Translations under genes and position numbers: made by a program
Part shown: piece after piece, positions 45,492-61,938 of the stretch
How the letters are laid out: each line of letters opens with the position of its first letter
Numbering within the stretch: the first letter of the stretch is position 1
The notes under the pieces: model-generated
The model's input: the letters and a program-made list of their open reading frames with translations, nothing else
Told to the model about the DNA's origin: nothing
Database searches by the model: none
From: a bacterium
GTDB lineage: Bacteria > Patescibacteriota > Minisyncoccia > Phycocordibacterales > Phycocordibacteraceae
Direction of reading: 5' to 3'
NCBI GenBank assembly: GCA_021802705.1
Contig: JAJZRL010000005.1
Span: forward strand, 1-61,938
Length of the DNA stretch: 61,938 bases

Positions 45492-45563
45492 GAGGAAAGT
45501 ATAGCCGAACGCAAGCTCCCCCGTGAGACGAGGGTGGGTATAACTTACTGGGCGGGAGAACGG

Positions 45564-45636
45564 TGCGCGCGCTAGGGATCGAACCTAGGACCTTCCGCGT
45601 ATCAGGCGGGCGCTCTACCAGCTGAGCTACGCGCGC
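45564..45636 (-). tRNA. tRNA-Ile (anticodon GAU)
   Basis: The minus strand reads GCGCGCG-TA-GCTCAGCTGGTAGAGC-G-CCCGC-CTGATAC-GCGGA-AGGTC-CTAGG-TTCGATC-CCTAG-CGCGCGC-A. All arms fold, with one C-A mismatch in the anticodon stem. CCA is not fully encoded. Confidence 0.85.
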
Positions 45637-46003
45637 AAACAGCGCAAGAAACGGAAACTGAAAAATCACCTGCCGGCTGTGGCCGGTTTTTTGATTCTAC
45701 CAGAAGCCGTTTAAACTGTCGCTCTTTGTCGGAAAGCGGCAGGCGCCCTAAGGCGCCTGCCGCTTTCCGTGATTCTGAGAAAGAAGTCTGCTCTCTTTTG
45801 TTCCGCCTATCCTGTTCCATTCGAGAGCTCATATGCGGCTCTCGAACGCCACCGGGTTACGTTATCCGGCTTCCGGGTACCGTTTAAAGACGAGTACCAT
45901 CTCTTCATTCCCCGAAGGAAACGATCGACGTGATACTCCTTTCGGGAGTATCGGTTCCAATTGGATATGTTCCACGAACAGCTTCCGCTACCCGTGCCTT
46001 GTT

Positions 46004-46771
46004 CTGTTTTCCCCTCGTATCGCTACGAGGCATGGACTATATCATCATCCGCTCCTCAAACAGCGCTCGCTTCATCGGATGCCATGACCCGACAACGCGT
46101 GCGAAGTCTGAATGCGATGCGGTGCTTATGAAACAACGCCAGTAATTTGGATCGACACGACGACTCGGATTATGGAGTGCGCCGGTTTTGATACCAAGTG
46201 ACTGAAGGATTTCTTTAAGCATCTGCATCTTCTCTCTGTCTTTTTGAACAAGCTGTATATAGAAGAGGGCATCCTGACTGTGCGGTATACCTCCTTCTGC
46301 ATCGAAGAAACCTCGGATATAAGCCGCTTTTTCTTCACTTGTTTTGAGAGACAGAGGATTGAATCGGAAATCGAGAAATGCTGCGGTAGTTTCAAGATCG
46401 TATACATCACGTTTACCTTCTTGATACATCCACGACCGGTGGCCGAGATGCATGAGAAGATTTTTAAGAATCGTTAGCCATTCGGTTCCTTTTTGAGAGA
46501 ATCGAACACGATTCTTGCGACGATACGCATCATGAAGCGCGCCTTGCAGATATGCTTTGATTTCAGATTTCGATTTGAACGGCGATCGGCGTGTAGTCTC
46601 TGAGGGGTCAATTACGACTTCCCTGCTGATTTTCTGCACCCGACGCATTGTCACGGGCATAATGTTTCCATTATACCGCGTAGCGCGGGATTCTCAGGTC
46701 TTCCAGCATATAGCCAATTTTATTTTTCGAGGGATTACTCCCAAGCGTCGCAACACCGGCAGTCTGCCGGT
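46004..46771 (-). mobile_element. 16S insertion 3 (768 nt, group I-like) between AAGUCGU and AACAAGG
   Basis: The exon ends in U and the intron ends in G. Intron GCGAC about 20 nt in can pair with exon GUCGU with a terminal U-G. It contains a LAGLIDADG ORF. Confidence 0.7.
46037..46660 (-). CDS. LAGLIDADG homing endonuclease (two-motif type, degenerate first motif)
   Basis: 207 aa. IRGFFDAEGG (LAGLIDADG-like) and an upstream YLQGALHDAY. It lies wholly inside insertion 3. Confidence 0.75.
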   Translation of the reverse strand: MPVTMRRVQKISREVVIDPSETTRRSPFKSKSEIKAYLQGALHDAYRRKNRVRFSQKGTEWLTILKNLLMHLGHRSWMYQEGKRDVYDLETTAAFLDFRFNPLSLKTSEEKAAYIRGFFDAEGGIPHSQDALFYIQLVQKDREKMQMLKEILQSLGIKTGALHNPSRRVDPNYWRCFISTASHSDFARVVGSWHPMKRALFEERMMI

Positions 46772-46858
46772 ACGACTTAGTCCTTGTCACTGAATTTGCC
46801 GTAGTCCTGCGCGAGGCAGACCTTCGGGCACCCCCAGCTCCCTTGACTTGACGGGCGG

Positions 46859-47694
46859 ATTGCAATAGGCCGAGACGCCTTTGCGTTCCCACGTAGCGAA
46901 CGGATTTCCCGTACTACGCGAGTCCGACAGTTTTTTGATTCATGCGCAACTTGAGTTCACGAATTTCTCCAACCCCTTCTGTAGTCAAATGCTTCCGCTC
47001 TTTTACAAGCTTGGCGATCTTACAGAAGATATCGAAGCTCGCGCTCTTCGTTGCGCTGCGCAACGGATGTTTCCTGAAGAACGGGATAACAATATCTTGT
47101 ATATCCCGTTCTGCACTTACGGTATAGCGATAACACTGACAATGGTTTGCGCGTTGTTCTTTTTGGAAGTACACCGCACCACACCCTATCGTGTTCCGTA
47201 CTTTCTCAAGCAAGTCTTTATCACGTTCTTGCATTTTCAGATGAAAATGCAATTGAACGCGATGTCCTGCTCGATAACGGTCAGAAGCTCCCATGTTCAC
47301 ATAGAAACATCCTTCGCCGTCCGTAAGTCCGACAACATATTCGTTGCTAACCGTCGGAAGTGTCCTTTCCATACGTCCAGTATAACTTGACGTATGGTAC
47401 TACGACACAGCTGACTTCTCATAGGTGTTCATATCTCGATCCCTATGAGATCTCCTTGGGTCATTATCCATTCCGTTCCTTGCATCCGCTCAATGCGATT
47501 GTGAAGCGCTTCCCCATTACTCACCAGAATGGGTCGCGCATACGCTCTGTATCTCTACAGGAGGGCTGCTTTTTGCTACTAGATCTCTCCGCCGACAACC
47601 TCGCGGCCTGCCGACTGTTCGTTCGCTACGCGTGCTTTCGCACGGGTCCGATTTTAACGGACTGGATTGAATAACTACCAAGCACATTTCTGAA
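46859..47694 (-). mobile_element. 16S insertion 2 (836 nt) within the decoding-centre sequence GUACUCA/CCGCCCGUC
   Basis: The flanks reconstitute UGUACUCACCGCCCGUCA. The boundaries do not obey the simple U / terminal-G rule. It contains a LAGLIDADG ORF. Confidence 0.6.
46914..47372 (-). CDS. LAGLIDADG homing endonuclease (single-motif type)
   Basis: 152 aa. YVVGLTDGEGCFYV motif. It lies inside insertion 2. Confidence 0.85.
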   Translation of the reverse strand: MERTLPTVSNEYVVGLTDGEGCFYVNMGASDRYRAGHRVQLHFHLKMQERDKDLLEKVRNTIGCGAVYFQKEQRANHCQCYRYTVSAERDIQDIVIPFFRKHPLRSATKSASFDIFCKIAKLVKERKHLTTEGVGEIRELKLRMNQKTVGLA

Positions 47695-48274
47695 TGAGTA
47701 CAAGACTCGAGAACGTATTCACCCCGGTTTGGCTGACCCGGGATTACTAGCGATTCCGGCTTCATGAGGTCGGTTGCAGACCTCAATCCGTACTGGGGTC
47801 GGTTTTATAGGGATTGGCTCCGCCTTGCGGCATTGCAACCCGTTGTACCGACCATTGTATTATGCGTGCAGCCCAAGGTATCAGAGGGACATGCTGATCT
47901 GGCGTCATCCCCACCTTCCTCTCCCGTGAGGGAGCAGTCTCGCCTGGCCATATAGGCAACAGGCAACGGGGGTTGCGTTCGTTACCCCACTGAAGGGAAC
48001 AGTTCAAACCACGAACTGACGACGACCATGCATCACCTGCCCAACACCCTCGAAGGCTCCTCACCTTTCGGCGAGGATGCAGTTGGGTTTCTAACCTTGG
48101 TAAGGTTCTTCGTTTGTCGACGAATTAAGCCGCATAATCCACCGCTTGTGCGAGTCCCCGTCTATTCCTTTGAGTTTTAATCTTGCGATCGTACTACCCA
48201 GGCGGCTCGCTTACCGCGTTAGCTTAGCCTCACAGAGGGTCGATACTCCGTAAAGCGAGCGAGCAACGTTGAGG

Positions 48275-48308
<34 letters not shown>

Positions 48309-48735
48309 ACCCTGGCTTTCGTGTGTGAGCGTCAGGAACGTACCAGTGCACTGCCTTCGCCTTTGGTGTTCCCCATGATATCAACGGATTTCACCCCTCC
48401 ACCATGAGTTCCGTGCACCTCTTACGCCCTCGAGCCATACCGTTTCCTCCGCTAGCCGCAGGTTAAGCCCACGGATTTCACAAAAGACTAATATGGCCGC
48501 CTCGACACCCTTTACGCCCAATGATTCCGGGTAATGCTTGGGGCCTCTGTATTACCGCTCCTGCTGGCACAGAGTTAGGAGCCCCTTATTCATCGGGTAC
48601 CGTCAATAAACTTCGTCCCCGATAAAAGATGTTTACGTACCGAAGCACTTCATCCATCACGCGGCGTCGCTCCGTCAGGCTTTCGCCCATTGCGGAATAT
48701 TCTCGTCTGCAGCCTCCCGTAGGAGTATGGGCCGT

Positions 48736-49436
48736 CGTTTATTCCATAATTTCTTATGGCACAGACTATACTTTCACCCTCGTTCGCGCGAGGGGCTTGC
48801 GTCTTACAGAATCCGAAGATTCTGTCTTCATCCCGGTTTTCTCCGGGATTCCAGTCGTTACGGGGTCAAACACTCGTATTTCGCGCTTTCCTCCCGTAGA
48901 GGAGTTTAGGCTGCGAATTTTCTGCACTAATGACAGAATACGAATATACGCTCCTTCAGACAGCGTGCTTGGTTTGTGTTTCTCATTTACGCTCATCCTT
49001 TTCAATACTTCAAGAGCCAGGTTTGCCTGGTCTTTCTTTATGAGAAGGAATGGCACGAGACGCGCGAGCACCGCTTTCACTTGGCTTCGTTCTTGGACAA
49101 CCAACTCTGCGAGATTTTTGCGCTTATCGGTTCGGATGACCCCGAAACTTCCAAGCGCTTCTCGCACCAATCTCAATTTACCTATATGCCGCGCATGTTG
49201 GGTGAAATTCACCTTGATGCGCACACGATACGGGAACCGTTTGCTGTGATAACGCTCAAGCGTTGCCACAACAGAACCGTCTCCGTCCAAAAATCCAGCC
49301 AAATATTCGTCTGATGGATAGTGTCGACTTCCCACGGTATTGCCTTTGATGGGTACCATTATACACCCATCAGTCAGGTTCCACCGTTATGAGCAAGATT
49401 TATCATTGGGGATTACTCCCCAAGGAGACAACTTTT
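48736..49436 (-). mobile_element. 16S insertion 1 (701 nt, group I-like) between ACUGAGAU and ACGGCCCAUACUCC
   Basis: The exon ends in U and the intron ends in G. Intron GUCUC (nt 8-12) pairs with exon GAGAU with a terminal U-G. An S-element-like AAAGUAUAGUCUGUGC lies near the 3' end. It contains a LAGLIDADG ORF. Confidence 0.75.
48766..49359 (-). CDS. LAGLIDADG homing endonuclease (single-motif type)
   Basis: 197 aa. YLAGFLDGDGSV motif. It lies inside insertion 1. Confidence 0.85.
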   Translation of the reverse strand: MVPIKGNTVGSRHYPSDEYLAGFLDGDGSVVATLERYHSKRFPYRVRIKVNFTQHARHIGKLRLVREALGSFGVIRTDKRKNLAELVVQERSQVKAVLARLVPFLLIKKDQANLALEVLKRMSVNEKHKPSTLSEGAYIRILSLVQKIRSLNSSTGGKREIRVFDPVTTGIPEKTGMKTESSDSVRRKPLARTRVKV

Positions 49437-49846
49437 ATCTCAGTCCCATCGGTGGGGATCAGGCTCTCACCCCCCCTAAGCGTCGTAGCCTTGGTAAGCC
49501 GTTACCTTACCAACTAGCTGATACTGCGCAGGCAACTCCCGAAGCGAAAAACCTTTACCCTTGCGGGACTATCGGGGATTACCCCGTCTTTCGACGAGCT
49601 ATACCCGACTTCGGGGGATCTACCTACGTGTTACTACCTCGTTTGCCGGTTGTCCTTGCGGACCCCCTTGACTTGCATGACTTATCCACGCCGCCAGCAT
49701 TCACCCTGAGCTAGGATCAAACTCTCATTAAGAATAGGCGGAACAAAAGAATTCATACTTCATTATTTCTCATTCACGTACTTGCACGTATTCGATTTTC
49801 AAAGGTCAAAAGAAACCCCGTCCCGTTACAGCGGGACAGTACCGCT

Positions 49847-60099: not shown

Positions 60100-60218
60100 G
60101 GTTCTGGCGGCTAGCTACTCTCCCCATCTGTAACGATGAGTACCATCGCCGCTAGGAGGCTTGACTGCCGAGTTCGGAATGAGATCGGGTATGACCCTCC
60201 CGCCAAACCACCAGAACC
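60100..60218 (-). rRNA. rrf: 5S rRNA
   Basis: The minus strand reads GGTTCTGGTGG...CCGAACTCGGCAGTCAAGC...GATGGTACT...GAGAGTAGCTAGCCGCCAGAACC. Length 119 nt. Confidence 0.9.
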
Positions 60219-60527
60219 GAACACTCGAAGTGTCGGGAACAAACGAATACGCATACGGTATGCAAACACTAAGTATGACTGTGCTACACAGAGTTCCGCA
60301 CGAGAGACTGGGCGTATTAGTACTCCTCGGCTCAACGCCTCACGACGCTTCCACCTAGAGCCTATCAACCTTGTCATCTTCAAGGGGCCTCATAACGATT
60401 CCTAATCTTGGAGCACGTTTCCCGCTTATATGCTTTCAGCGGTTATCGTCACCCGACATAGCTACTGAGCGGTGCCGCTGGCGCGACAGCTCATAGACCA
60501 GAGGTCAGTTCATCCCGGTCCTCTCGT

Positions 60528-60898
60528 CGCAATTAACTGGACAATTAACCAGTTAAAGATTCCCCTATTTCTAGGAGCGCAGACTATATCTTCATCCTTC
60601 TCCGCTGTCGAAGTTAGGATGATGGCATTTTACCCAATAGGAGCAGTCATTTTCTAAGAAATGATTCCTCAACCTATGAGTCTAGGTATCTTTCAACCTA
60701 AGTCGTTACGGGGTCAACCAAAACATTTCTATTTTTGGCGACTTCCCACGGTATTACCATAGTAGCATTCTAGTCCTCAAGCGAGTTTGATATCCACTGG
60801 ACCGTCGGATACCAACCTCTAAAACCAGACGCACCGTAGGCTTCACCGTTATAAGCCATGTTGTCATCAGAGATCTCTCTCTGAAGTAGCAATTTCTT
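60528..60898 (-). mobile_element. ORF-less group I-like intron (371 nt) inside the sarcin-ricin loop sequence of the 23S
   Basis: The flanks join to CCCUAGU|ACGAGAGGACCGG. The exon ends in U and pairs with intron GCUA (U-G). The intron ends in G. It contains AAGAUAUAGUC, an S-element-like motif. Confidence 0.75.
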
Positions 60899-60961
60899 AC
60901 TAGGGACAACCCTCCTCAAGAATCAACGCCTGTAGTAGATAGGAGACCAACCTGTCTCACG

Positions 60962-61219
60962 CATCTTGTTTTAGCCCCGATTACTCGGGGGATCGGACTG
61001 TAACACCATCGGTTCTCGATGACCAACATTCAGTCTCTCGGGGCAGCCCCGTTTTAAACGGGACATTCCCTCGGTATCGCCCTCTCGTACACAACGAGGT
61101 CGGGTTTTACCGATATCAGTTGATTTGTTTCGCGCGTATTCCTACGCACGACCGCCGTGAATTGTCTTTTCCTCGTGGGTTCAAACCGTGGAATGGCCGA
61201 TGACTGCATCAGCCGCTCT
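60962..61219 (-). mobile_element. ORF-less insertion (258 nt) in the 23S between GGGUUCAAACCGU and CGUGAGACAG
   Basis: The flanks join to a sequence colinear with E. coli GGGUUUAGAACGUCGUGAGACAG. The exon ends in U and the insertion ends in G. The insertion carries a 13-nt perfect complement of the upstream exon end. Confidence 0.6.
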
Positions 61220-61880
61220 ACGGTTTGAACCCAGCTCGCGTACCTTTTTAATTGGCGAACAGCCAAACGCTTGGGAGCTTCTCCACCCCCGCGCTAAGGT
61301 GAGCCGACATCGAGGTGCCGAACTCCGCCGTCGCTATGGACGCTTGGGCGGAACTAGCCTGTTATCCCCAGGGTAACTTATATCCGTTAATCTCTGGCCG
61401 CATCTAAGGCGAACCATCGGTTCACTATGCTCTGCTTTCGCATCTGCTCGGGATGTACCCCTCGCAGTTAAGCCCTCTTTTGCCATTACACTATCGGCAC
61501 GGTTTCCATTCGCGCCTAGAGAACCTTAATAGACTCCTCCGTTACTTTTTAGGAGGATAGCGCCCCACCAAAACTACCCGCCACGCACGGTCCCCCGTTG
61601 GATCCCAACGGGGTTAGACATTGCACACAACAAGATGGGTATTTCACTGACGGATCCACACCAGCCGAAACCGATGCTTCAAATCCTCCCCACTATGCTA
61701 CGCATGCAGCACGCAATGCCAATACGAAGCTGTAGTAAAGCTCCTGGGGTCTTTTCGTCTAACTACAGGTATCCGGCATCTTCACCGGAAGTGCATTTTC
61801 ACCGAGCGAGTCCTCGAGACAGTTTCCCACTCATTACACCATTCGTGCACGTCGGAACTTACCCGACAAGGAATTACGCT

Positions 61881-61938
61881 CAAGTGTTCCTTAAACTTGG
61901 ATCATATCTTCTCCCATTACACACTGCGAGAGCGTGTC
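61881..61938 (-). mobile_element. Probable 3' end of a further 23S insertion that runs off the window
   Basis: The conserved AGCGUAAUUCCUUGUCGGG begins at 61880. The sequence upstream in RNA sense (61881-61938) does not match the expected CCUAAGGU context, and its last nucleotide is G. Confidence 0.4.

Follow-up and report, generated by a model that had tools for sequence, protein, structure and literature searches.

A probable IIC-type group II intron with a LAGLIDADG gene interrupts the decoding centre of a Patescibacteria 16S rRNA gene

What kind of element can interrupt the decoding centre of a 16S rRNA gene at boundaries that break the group I rules, and how is it removed? The window analysed here, a stretch of 61,938 nucleotides of Patescibacteria DNA (contig JAJZRL010000005.1), carries a minus-strand 16S rRNA gene from approximately 49726 down to approximately 45960 (Rfam SSU match), with a tRNA-Ile gene downstream. 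Three interruptions lie in the gene, the second of which is an 836-nt insertion occupying minus-strand positions 47694 to 46859. On the RNA strand its two junctions read ...CUUGUACUCA/UUCAGAAAUGUGC...CCUAUUGCAAU/CCGCCCGUCAAG, where a slash marks a boundary here and below, or ...CUUGUACUCA/UUCAGAAAUGUGCUUGG...GGCCUAUUGCAAU/CCGCCCGUCAAG in a longer reading, and the flanks joined without the insertion give UGUACUCA/CCGCCCGUCA. We take the joined flanks to be E. coli 16S positions 1391-1408 with an A1396U change, numbered via the universally conserved 1392-1406 string, and with the same string as guide we place the insertion between A1398 and C1399. The junctions cannot slide in either direction, the exon-final A differing from the insertion-final U and the insertion-first U from the first C of the 3′ exon. 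The boundaries have neither a U at exon position -1 nor a terminal G, just as an earlier sequence-only reading of this DNA had claimed, and the pattern holds in 73 complete relatives. The same reading had remarked that forcing a U/terminal-G solution would add two nucleotides to the rRNA; this is correct, and the solution also fails in relatives that lack that G, for example ...AAAAAUCACAU/UCGCCC.

These relatives come from a survey of one genome per GTDB species in which 279 of 317 candidate stretches encode a relative of the insertion's endonuclease. We fetched 80 of the 279 confirmed loci, 73 with the whole insertion and seven cut by a contig end, each with a matching 5′ or 3′ junction. All 80 Patescibacteria loci have the intron at the identical site, A1398/C1399, and every fetched GTDB locus with a 5′ junction has an exon ending in GUAC(U/A)CA. 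The 73 complete insertions invariably end in AU, just past a hairpin (71/71 in the parsed tally), and no conserved G was found near their 3′ ends. Tallies of the first base and of the linker described below cover the 71 of the 73 that were parsed by a motif search; the first intron base among these is C in 22, A in 19, G in 16 and U in 14. The endonuclease itself has 742 homologues in a large protein collection, nearly all of 152 aa and named from Patescibacteria. The intron family is very common in Patescibacteria.

We attribute the broken group I rules to the class of the element: the insertion is very probably a compact bacterial group II intron of the IIC type, lying between A1398 and C1399 with a LAGLIDADG gene in domain IV. 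A group I identity with aberrant splice sites, lacking both the U at -1 and the terminal G, might be suspected because LAGLIDADG endonucleases are typically found in group I introns and because the two other insertions of the same 16S gene keep to the group I boundary rules. Against this, the Rfam group I model (RF00028) found no match in the insertion even at E≤10, although it scored 43 bits in the next insertion (46013-46778); the 73 complete relatives conserve no G at or near the 3′ end; and the architecture that covaries consists of domain V, domain VI and EBS1, not of P3-P9. We give a group I origin next to no chance, and the view that the insertion is no canonical group I intron, with an exon ending in A and an intron ending in U, stands. 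A candidate group I core made up of GAGAUCU/AGAUCUC (here the slash separates the two strands) and an 'S-like' GAGAUAUGAAC was dropped, the covarying helices and the Rfam alignment at this place corresponding to group II domains I-III.

A search of the insertion for group I, group II and bulge-helix-bulge motifs had been proposed, and the group II part of it gave matches while the other two found nothing. The insertion matches RF01998 (group-II-D1D4-1) at 47362-47454 with 26.7 bits and E = 0.012, short of the gathering score of 35, and four relatives match the same model in the homologous place with 35.1-38.8 bits, above that score. One relative (L070) matches RF00029, the model of domains V-VI, with 35 bits against a gathering score of 40, and its match ends exactly at the 3′ exon. 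Secondary-structure modelling, likewise proposed, yielded group II domains I-III, V and VI with covariation. The parts that we assign to the intron and to its exon edges are as follows, in RNA order and with the basis of each assignment.

47695..47699, minus strand: IBS1, the 5′ exon's final 5 nt (ACUCA, 16S 1394-1398); five pairs with EBS1
47688..47694, minus strand: 5′-terminal linker UUCAGAA, from the splice site to the GUGYG relic; alignment of relatives
47683..47687, minus strand: AUGUG (family xxGYG), remnant of the canonical GUGYG start of group II introns, directly 5′ of the domain I stem
47455..47682, minus strand: domain I; closing helix of CUUGG (47682-47678) with CCAAG (47459-47455)
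47512..47535, minus strand: EBS1 hairpin, GACCCAUU-CUGGUGAGU-AAUGGGG; covariation with the exon
47417..47454, minus strand: domain II hairpin, CUCAUAG...CUAUGAG; 7 pairs (helix 13), all with compensatory changes, inside the RF01998 match
47362..47415, minus strand: J2/3 and domain III, GUCAGCUGUGUCGUAGUACCAUACG...CGUAUGGAAAGGAC; Rfam group-II-D1D4-1 match 47362-47454
46914..47372, minus strand: domain IV ORF, a 152-aa single-motif LAGLIDADG homing endonuclease; Pfam LAGLIDADG_1
46888..46922, minus strand: domain V, CUCGCGUAGU-ACGG-GAAAU-CCGU-UC-GCUACGUGGG; covariation
46862..46884, minus strand: domain VI, GCAA-A-GGC...GCC-U-[A]-UUGC, with a 4-bp basal helix (bulged A in brackets); covariation
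46859..46861, minus strand: 3′-terminal AAU, its last two bases AU being the group II 'AY' ending; invariance in relatives
46858, minus strand: C1399, the first base of the 3′ exon; junction reading

The ribozyme part of the intron thus defined amounts to approximately 377 nt. The ORF matches Pfam LAGLIDADG_1 with E = 2e-20, and I-OnuI-type enzymes match it with each of their halves (E = 3e-42). Its start codon lies inside the 3′ strand of domain III and its stop codon, UAG at 46916-46914, inside domain V. The latter domain has a CGC triad at 46920-46918 with its G facing a U, five pairs, a 2-nt bulge in the 3′ strand and a short upper helix closed by a loop of 5 nt instead of a GNRA tetraloop.

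Compensatory changes were found in both 3′ hairpins when the last ~62 nt of 57 relatives were analysed with RNAalifold. One pair of the domain V upper helix occurs as G-C (32 sequences) or as A-U (20), and in the lower helix 6-8 sequences have CG, UA or GC instead; the three outermost pairs of the domain are invariable. The basal pairs of domain VI covary as well (e.g. GC 43, UA 5, AU 5 and CG 3), and the bulged A, which lies at 46866 and 8 nt from the 3′ end of this intron, is invariant in the 57-sequence alignment and stands at -8 in 68 of the 71 parsed relatives. The final A and U are invariant (57/57), with AAU as the last three bases in 60 of the 71 parsed relatives. For domains I and II, an alignment of 46 sequences gave a consensus of 61 pairs with compensatory changes in 53, in which 92.9% of cells are paired; shifting the partners by 1-3 columns lowers this to 34-43%. 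Covariation scored 0.714, compared with at most 0.134 in the shifted controls, and none of 500 shuffles reached the observed values. The closing helix of domain I is 100% paired, with compensatory changes in four of its five pairs. We rejected a perfect 11-bp pairing spotted by eye between CGUAGCGAACG (intron positions 64-74) and CGUUCGCUACG in the 3′ strand of domain V, because in the six relatives with changes in the lower helix of domain V (L066, L070, L072, L075, L079 and L080) it is the 5′ strand of that domain that changes to match, the domain I motif staying GUAGC.

Recognition of the exon can be followed across the relatives in the same way. EBS1 is UGAGU (47523-47519), the final five loop bases of its domain I hairpin, and the G just 5′ of it, at 47524, is opposite C1399, the first base of the 3′ exon. 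Where the exon junction is ACACA/C the EBS1 loop is GUGUGU (12/12 loci), and where it is ACUCA/C the loop is GUGAGU or GUGGGU in most loci, a few being in another register. In the 46-sequence alignment the EBS1 pair at exon position 1396 is U-A in 33 cases, A-U in eight and U-G in five, and it is never unpaired. A scan for EBS2 found no complement in a loop, and the recurrent 6-mers complementary to the U-rich exon were G-U-rich and located in helix strands; an absence of EBS2 would be expected for a IIC intron. No EBS3 was located, the columns that separate apparent U-start from C-start 3′ exons giving just an alignment offset, and γ-γ′ was not located in the intron. By comparison of relatives, the data demonstrate the fold, the exon-binding site and the geometry of domains V-VI, and the ribozyme's own guides, EBS1 and domain VI, specify exactly the splice sites seen.

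At its 3′ end the insertion is canonical for a group II intron, since AU is a group II 'AY' ending. At its 5′ end the GUGYG start of such introns is absent: the intron begins with UUCAG because the ancestral GUGYG, here AUGUG, now lies 7 nt inside, behind the 5′-terminal linker, a departure already on record for group II introns (PMC4424553, PMC13190283). The linker is 7 nt long in 57 of the 71 parsed relatives, ranging from 6 to 10 nt with a single case of 41; it is A/U-rich and unconserved in sequence, and any nucleotide can be its first base. Within the relic G3, Y4 and G5 are conserved, and position 1 is a G in just 10 of the 71.

Three possibilities had been raised from the sequence, namely a different intron class, a different excision mechanism and a ribosome that tolerates a changed 1400 region, and it is the first that we retain, as a group II intron whose AU end obeys the group II rule. 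Excision by protein, through an archaeal-type bulge-helix-bulge or some other host endonuclease and a ligase, is suggested by boundaries that lack both the group I and the canonical group II 5′ signatures. A bulge-helix-bulge consists of two 3-nt bulges 4 bp apart, and it demands that the first intron bases pair with the first bases of the 3′ exon and that the exon ends of the motif pair with each other. None can be drawn at this insertion, where UUCAGAAAUG is not complementary to CCGCCCGU, nor GUACUCA to CCGCCC. The linker, moreover, varies freely in sequence and length between relatives, and the insertion keeps catalytic domains of its own and a binding site that covaries with the exon. Excision by protein is on this evidence extremely improbable.

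An intervening sequence that is removed by RNase III-like processing without ligation, leaving the 16S rRNA in two pieces, has precedents in bacterial rRNA, and cases in the 23S rRNA of CPR bacteria have been discussed (PMC11270868); RNA contigs with a ligated junction, considered below, may all derive from intronless relatives. Yet no long terminal stem connects the ends of the insertion, a break between 1398 and 1399 would sever the decoding centre, and the conserved domain V, the branch-site domain VI, the 3-nt spacer and an EBS1 that tracks the exon fit splicing and ligation alone. We rate unligated processing as very improbable, if slightly less so than excision by protein.

Retention of the insertion, or of two extra bases, in a mature rRNA whose altered 1400 region the ribosome tolerates has nothing in its favour except the absent canonical group I sites, and there is no need for it if EBS1 and domain VI place the splice sites so that UGUACUCACCGCCCGUCA is restored. 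It is also opposed by RNA data. Intron depth is 0 in eight metatranscriptomes, in some of which (X1 and X3) the window-identical exon is present; for four groundwater metatranscriptomes, X1 and X3 among them, this holds at both 90% and 98% identity. The RNA runs examined do cover the flanking exons. In X1 and X3 the helix-44 exon between the second and third insertions is covered at 100% identity, and RNA contigs with the window's exact helix-44 sequence lose their match at 46858 with no run-on into the intron. Any indexed RNA run contains at most 5% of the intron words, compared with 96-100% in DNA runs from mine drainage. The chance that the insertion is retained is accordingly negligible in our view, on a par with that of a group I intron.

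Junction sequences in RNA had been named as a check, and RNA contigs that join 47695 straight to 46858 were indeed seen, among others in the groundwater runs; their source population is where the check falls short. The best such contig (X49, 361 nt), from the mine-drainage study that also yielded the source DNA, joins 47695 to 46858 and also 46771 to 46002, the flanks of the next intron. Three mismatches fall in its helix 44 and its 3′ flank is foreign to the window, and a DNA run of that study (X25) contains a contig with the same foreign flank and without both introns, the intronless form having a depth of 45-84 compared with ~5 for the intron-bearing allele. Because of these mismatches, the shared flank and the depths, an intronless relative is the most likely source of X49. 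In the RNA data the functional form of the rRNA is the ligated sequence and the intron does not accumulate; these data are compatible with excision, with the limit that ligated-junction contigs are confounded with, and inseparable from, those of intronless relatives.

For the group II intron that we favour, we propose the following course. As the comparison of relatives shows, domains I-III of the RNA fold ahead of the ORF and domains V-VI behind it; pairing of EBS1 (UGAGU) with the last five exon bases sets the 5′ splice site right after A1398, and domain VI plus 3 nt (AAU) sets the 3′ splice site. The ribozyme would cut at the site defined by EBS1 and the exons would then be ligated, presumably restoring UGUACUCACCGCCCGUCA, with ...UUGUACUCA/CCGCCCGUCAAG, that is UACUCA/CCGCCC, as the expected junction. 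The first step may be hydrolysis, as in all linker-bearing introns that have been tested, or the bulged A of domain VI may attack, which is possible because this A is strictly conserved here together with a basal helix of four pairs and a constant 3-nt spacer. Four pairs is the optimal length of the domain VI basal helix for branching (PMC4748821).

A ribozyme this small might be too reduced to splice alone and need the LAGLIDADG protein as a maturase, or a host factor. Besides the small size, the start codon in domain III and the stop codon in domain V, which would couple translation and folding, speak for such a dependence, and some LAGLIDADG proteins of group I introns are maturases (PMC4424553). 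On the other hand, the sole LAGLIDADG protein of a group II intron to have been tested gave splicing no help (PMC4424553), and introns of this kind in giant sulfur bacteria have been experimentally characterised, according to PMC11270868. We consider this dependence unlikely, though far less so than any of the alternatives above, and retain a self-sufficient group II intron as the preferred reading.

Single-domain LAGLIDADG enzymes of this family dimerise (PMC11270868), and a homodimer of the endonuclease would be expected to cut intronless 16S alleles around CTTGTACTCA/CCGCCCGTCAAG, at the site CTTGTACTCACCGCCCGTCAAG. Judging from the enzyme family and the patchy distribution of the intron, spread would take place at the DNA level through repair-mediated homing and not through retrohoming. 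The insertion should be annotated as a IIC-type group II intron that carries a LAGLIDADG gene, in a gene whose mature 16S rRNA is normal; the locus calls for neither an unusual decoding centre nor a new excision chemistry.

The intron resembles canonical IIC introns such as O.i.I1 of Oceanobacillus iheyensis in its small size, the CGC triad of domain V and the apparent lack of EBS2. A motif at J2/3 and domain III, GAAGUCAGC(A/U)G..GUC(A/G)UAGUACC, is found in canonical IIC introns too, a resemblance that we take as a lead only. Unlike the intron described here, canonical IIC introns carry the gene of a reverse transcriptase, take terminator hairpins as the place to insert behind, have GUGYG at the splice site and mostly possess a domain VI basal helix of 3 bp (PMC4748821).

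Displacement of the 5′ splice site from GUGYG has precedents in other classes. Mitochondrial IIB1 introns of rRNA genes carry 1-33 extra nucleotides at the 5′ end, according to the account of Li, Costa, Bassi, Lai and Michel (2011) given in PMC4424553 and PMC4024640. In fungal mitochondrial rRNA introns EBS1-IBS1 sets a splice site that lies 1-33 nt upstream of GUGYG, the Clostridium tetani intron C.te.I1 likewise splices 8 nt upstream of it, and both the fungal mitochondrial linker introns and C.te.I1 use hydrolysis only and no longer have the branch A (PMC4424553, PMC4024640). The present intron is like the mitochondrial IIB1 introns and C.te.I1 in having an EBS1-IBS1 site upstream of GUGYG, in the apparent loss of EBS2 and the loss of the reverse transcriptase, and in the frequent association with LAGLIDADG genes and rRNA genes. 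It differs from them in class, the mitochondrial introns being IIB1 and C.te.I1 belonging to another bacterial class, and in that the bulged A, the 4-bp basal helix and the 3-nt spacer are here strictly conserved.

Insertions of the type named '16IS9' were reportedly first noted by Brown et al. in 2015. They are group II-like insertions in CPR 16S genes, found solely at approximately position 1400, and encode a LAGLIDADG protein in 39 of 53 cases and a reverse transcriptase in none (Tsurumaki et al. 2024, PMC11270868). The window's insertion shares with them the host group, the region of the gene, the LAGLIDADG ORF and the lack of a reverse transcriptase, and is almost certainly one of them. 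The '16IS9' study classed its insertions by Rfam matches alone; precise splice sites, a 5′ linker, EBS1 and the condition of the branch site are not among the features it reported.

The rns-1396 intron of Thiomargarita was reportedly described by Salman et al. (2012). This intron, also called S1396, is a group IIC intron with a LAGLIDADG gene in Thiomargarita and other Thiotrichaceae, and Liu et al. (2026, PMC13190283) treat it as one bacterial family of LAGLIDADG-encoding group II introns. Its members share a IIC backbone and a domain IV that encodes a single-motif enzyme, all have a 5′-terminal linker, and EBS2 is absent (PMC13190283). The main text of the 2026 study confines the family to Thiotrichaceae, a few CPR entries, such as KX123325, KX123372, KX123377 and KX123386, nonetheless appearing in its table. 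It is the closest described relative of the intron analysed here, whose site differs from it by 2 nt, the rns-1396 site being upstream. Both are introns of the bacterial 16S decoding centre, of the IIC type, with a single-motif LAGLIDADG ORF in domain IV and a 5′ linker. The T. nelsonii seed FR690945 (supplement of PMC13190283) aligns with the window's family over domains I-III at 47-61% identity and begins AAAUAA-AUGCG-CCUGGCAG, as do many of the relatives in Patescibacteria. Seed and family share the linker, the AUGCG-CCUGG-CAG start, the GGAAGUCAGC..UCGUAGUA motif and an EBS1 formed by the last five loop bases of the same hairpin, and from this identity and these diagnostic motifs we conclude that the two are homologous.

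The target is where they part. The rns-1396 intron lies at UGUACA/CACCGC (A1396/C1397) and has the EBS1 UGUAC (Table S4 of PMC13190283), whereas the intron described here lies at UACUCA/CCGCCC (A1398/C1399), with the EBS1 UGAGU or UGUGU, in all 80 loci. The difference amounts to a shift of 2 nt along an (AC)n-like exon, in a host that is here a member of the Patescibacteria, and since site and EBS1 differ in all 80 loci the intron is a sister lineage of rns-1396, shifted by 2 nt, and not a member at the same site. More tentatively, and with doubt outweighing confidence, the lineage may still branch, forming a lariat on a 5′ nucleotide other than G, and it looks like a 2-nt 'slipped' retargeting of S1396 with EBS1 and, it may be presumed, the target of the endonuclease shifting in concert. 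If so, branching here would contradict the proposal that 5′ insertion, EBS2 loss and the loss of branching are causally linked. A conserved branch site beside a 5′ linker in any case offers a convenient natural test of whether 5′ insertions force hydrolytic splicing. The kind of intron is already in the literature, both as the CPR insertions at approximately 1400 (PMC11270868) and as the homologous Thiomargarita intron (PMC13190283); to that record the present analysis adds its abundance in Patescibacteria and a site 2 nt away from that of Thiomargarita, with a matching change in EBS1.

In the second insertion of the 16S rRNA gene, a group II (IIC-type) intron between A1398 and C1399, we found that the ORF for the 152-aa single-motif LAGLIDADG endonuclease overlaps the ribozyme core at both of its ends (46914-46922 and 47362-47372). 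Within domain III, the 3′ strand (CGUAUGGAAAGGAC) supplies the start codon together with the conserved N-terminal residues M-G/E-R-T; within domain V, the 5′ strand (GGACUCGCGUAG), including the triad, codes for the conserved C-terminal G-L-A-stop. As the start codon lies within a strand of domain III, it should be hidden once the ribozyme folds. The predicted homing site of the enzyme, CTTGTACTCA/CCGCCCGTCAAG (exon flanks, 46847-47704; slashes mark intron insertion points), shows partial palindromic symmetry (CTTG.AC ... G.CAAG) and is interrupted close to its centre, an arrangement that would suit a homodimeric single-motif LAGLIDADG enzyme.

Relatives of this intron were present in 80 fetched GTDB loci, twelve of which (L006, L009, L020, L023, L024, L036, L039, L044, L048, L053, L073 and L076) form a subgroup with the junctions UCA/CAAAUAAAUGCG...CA(C or G)AU/UCGCCC. 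These loci would either carry U1399 in the mature rRNA or have the intron one base further 3′ (UCAC/...AUU/CGCCC). The latter reading gives back the 3-nt spacer after domain VI, places the bulged A at -8 and agrees with the shorter EBS1 of the subgroup loci (GUGAG followed by C or G). The intron-bearing locus L065 additionally contains the site in uninterrupted form (CGAGCCTTGTACTCACCGCCCGTCA; 2300-2340), on the same scaffold beyond a run of N. This second copy, identical to the predicted ligated exons of the second-insertion intron, could be an allele that lacks the intron or an artefact of scaffolding. Four further intron-bearing loci (L062, L070, L075 and L080) come from bins labelled Gammaproteobacteria, Omnitrophota or Nevskiaceae; these labels could result from rRNA contigs assigned to the wrong bins or from genuine spread beyond Patescibacteria.

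The other two insertions in the 16S rRNA gene also encode LAGLIDADG proteins:

~48738-49436, minus strand, first 16S insertion, at about E. coli position 328
48766-49359, LAGLIDADG_1 protein of 197 aa encoded in the first insertion
46003-46771, minus strand, third 16S insertion, a group I intron
46037-46660, LAGLIDADG_3 ORF of 207 aa within the third insertion

The junctions of the first insertion (ACUGAGAU/AAAAGUUG...AAUAAACG/ACGGCCCAUACUCC) satisfy the U/G boundary rule of group I introns, although the Rfam search reported no group I hit in this element. The third insertion is a canonical group I intron located after U1498; its upstream exon terminates in AAGUCGU, its 3′ end reads ...AAAACAG, and it scores 43 bits against RF00028 (Rfam), below the gathering score of 50. 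The mine-drainage study also yielded this site in intronless form, in DNA as well as in RNA (joints 46002/46004 to 46771/46772).

The rRNA genes of the window are in an unusual order (60102-61938 versus 45562-49726): the 16S-tRNA-Ile unit is preceded, approximately 10 kb upstream and likewise on the minus strand, by the 3′ portion of the 23S gene and by the 5S gene, with long ORFs in the intervening DNA. The 16S gene itself ends as follows:

45960-46002, minus strand, 16S 3′ terminus, sequence ...GUAGCGGAAGCUGUUCGUGGAACAUAUCCAAUUGG

The usual anti-Shine-Dalgarno sequence of this 16S rRNA appears to be missing or changed: at the position of CCUCC, where E. coli has GGAUCACCUCCUUA, the window has ACAUAUCC instead.
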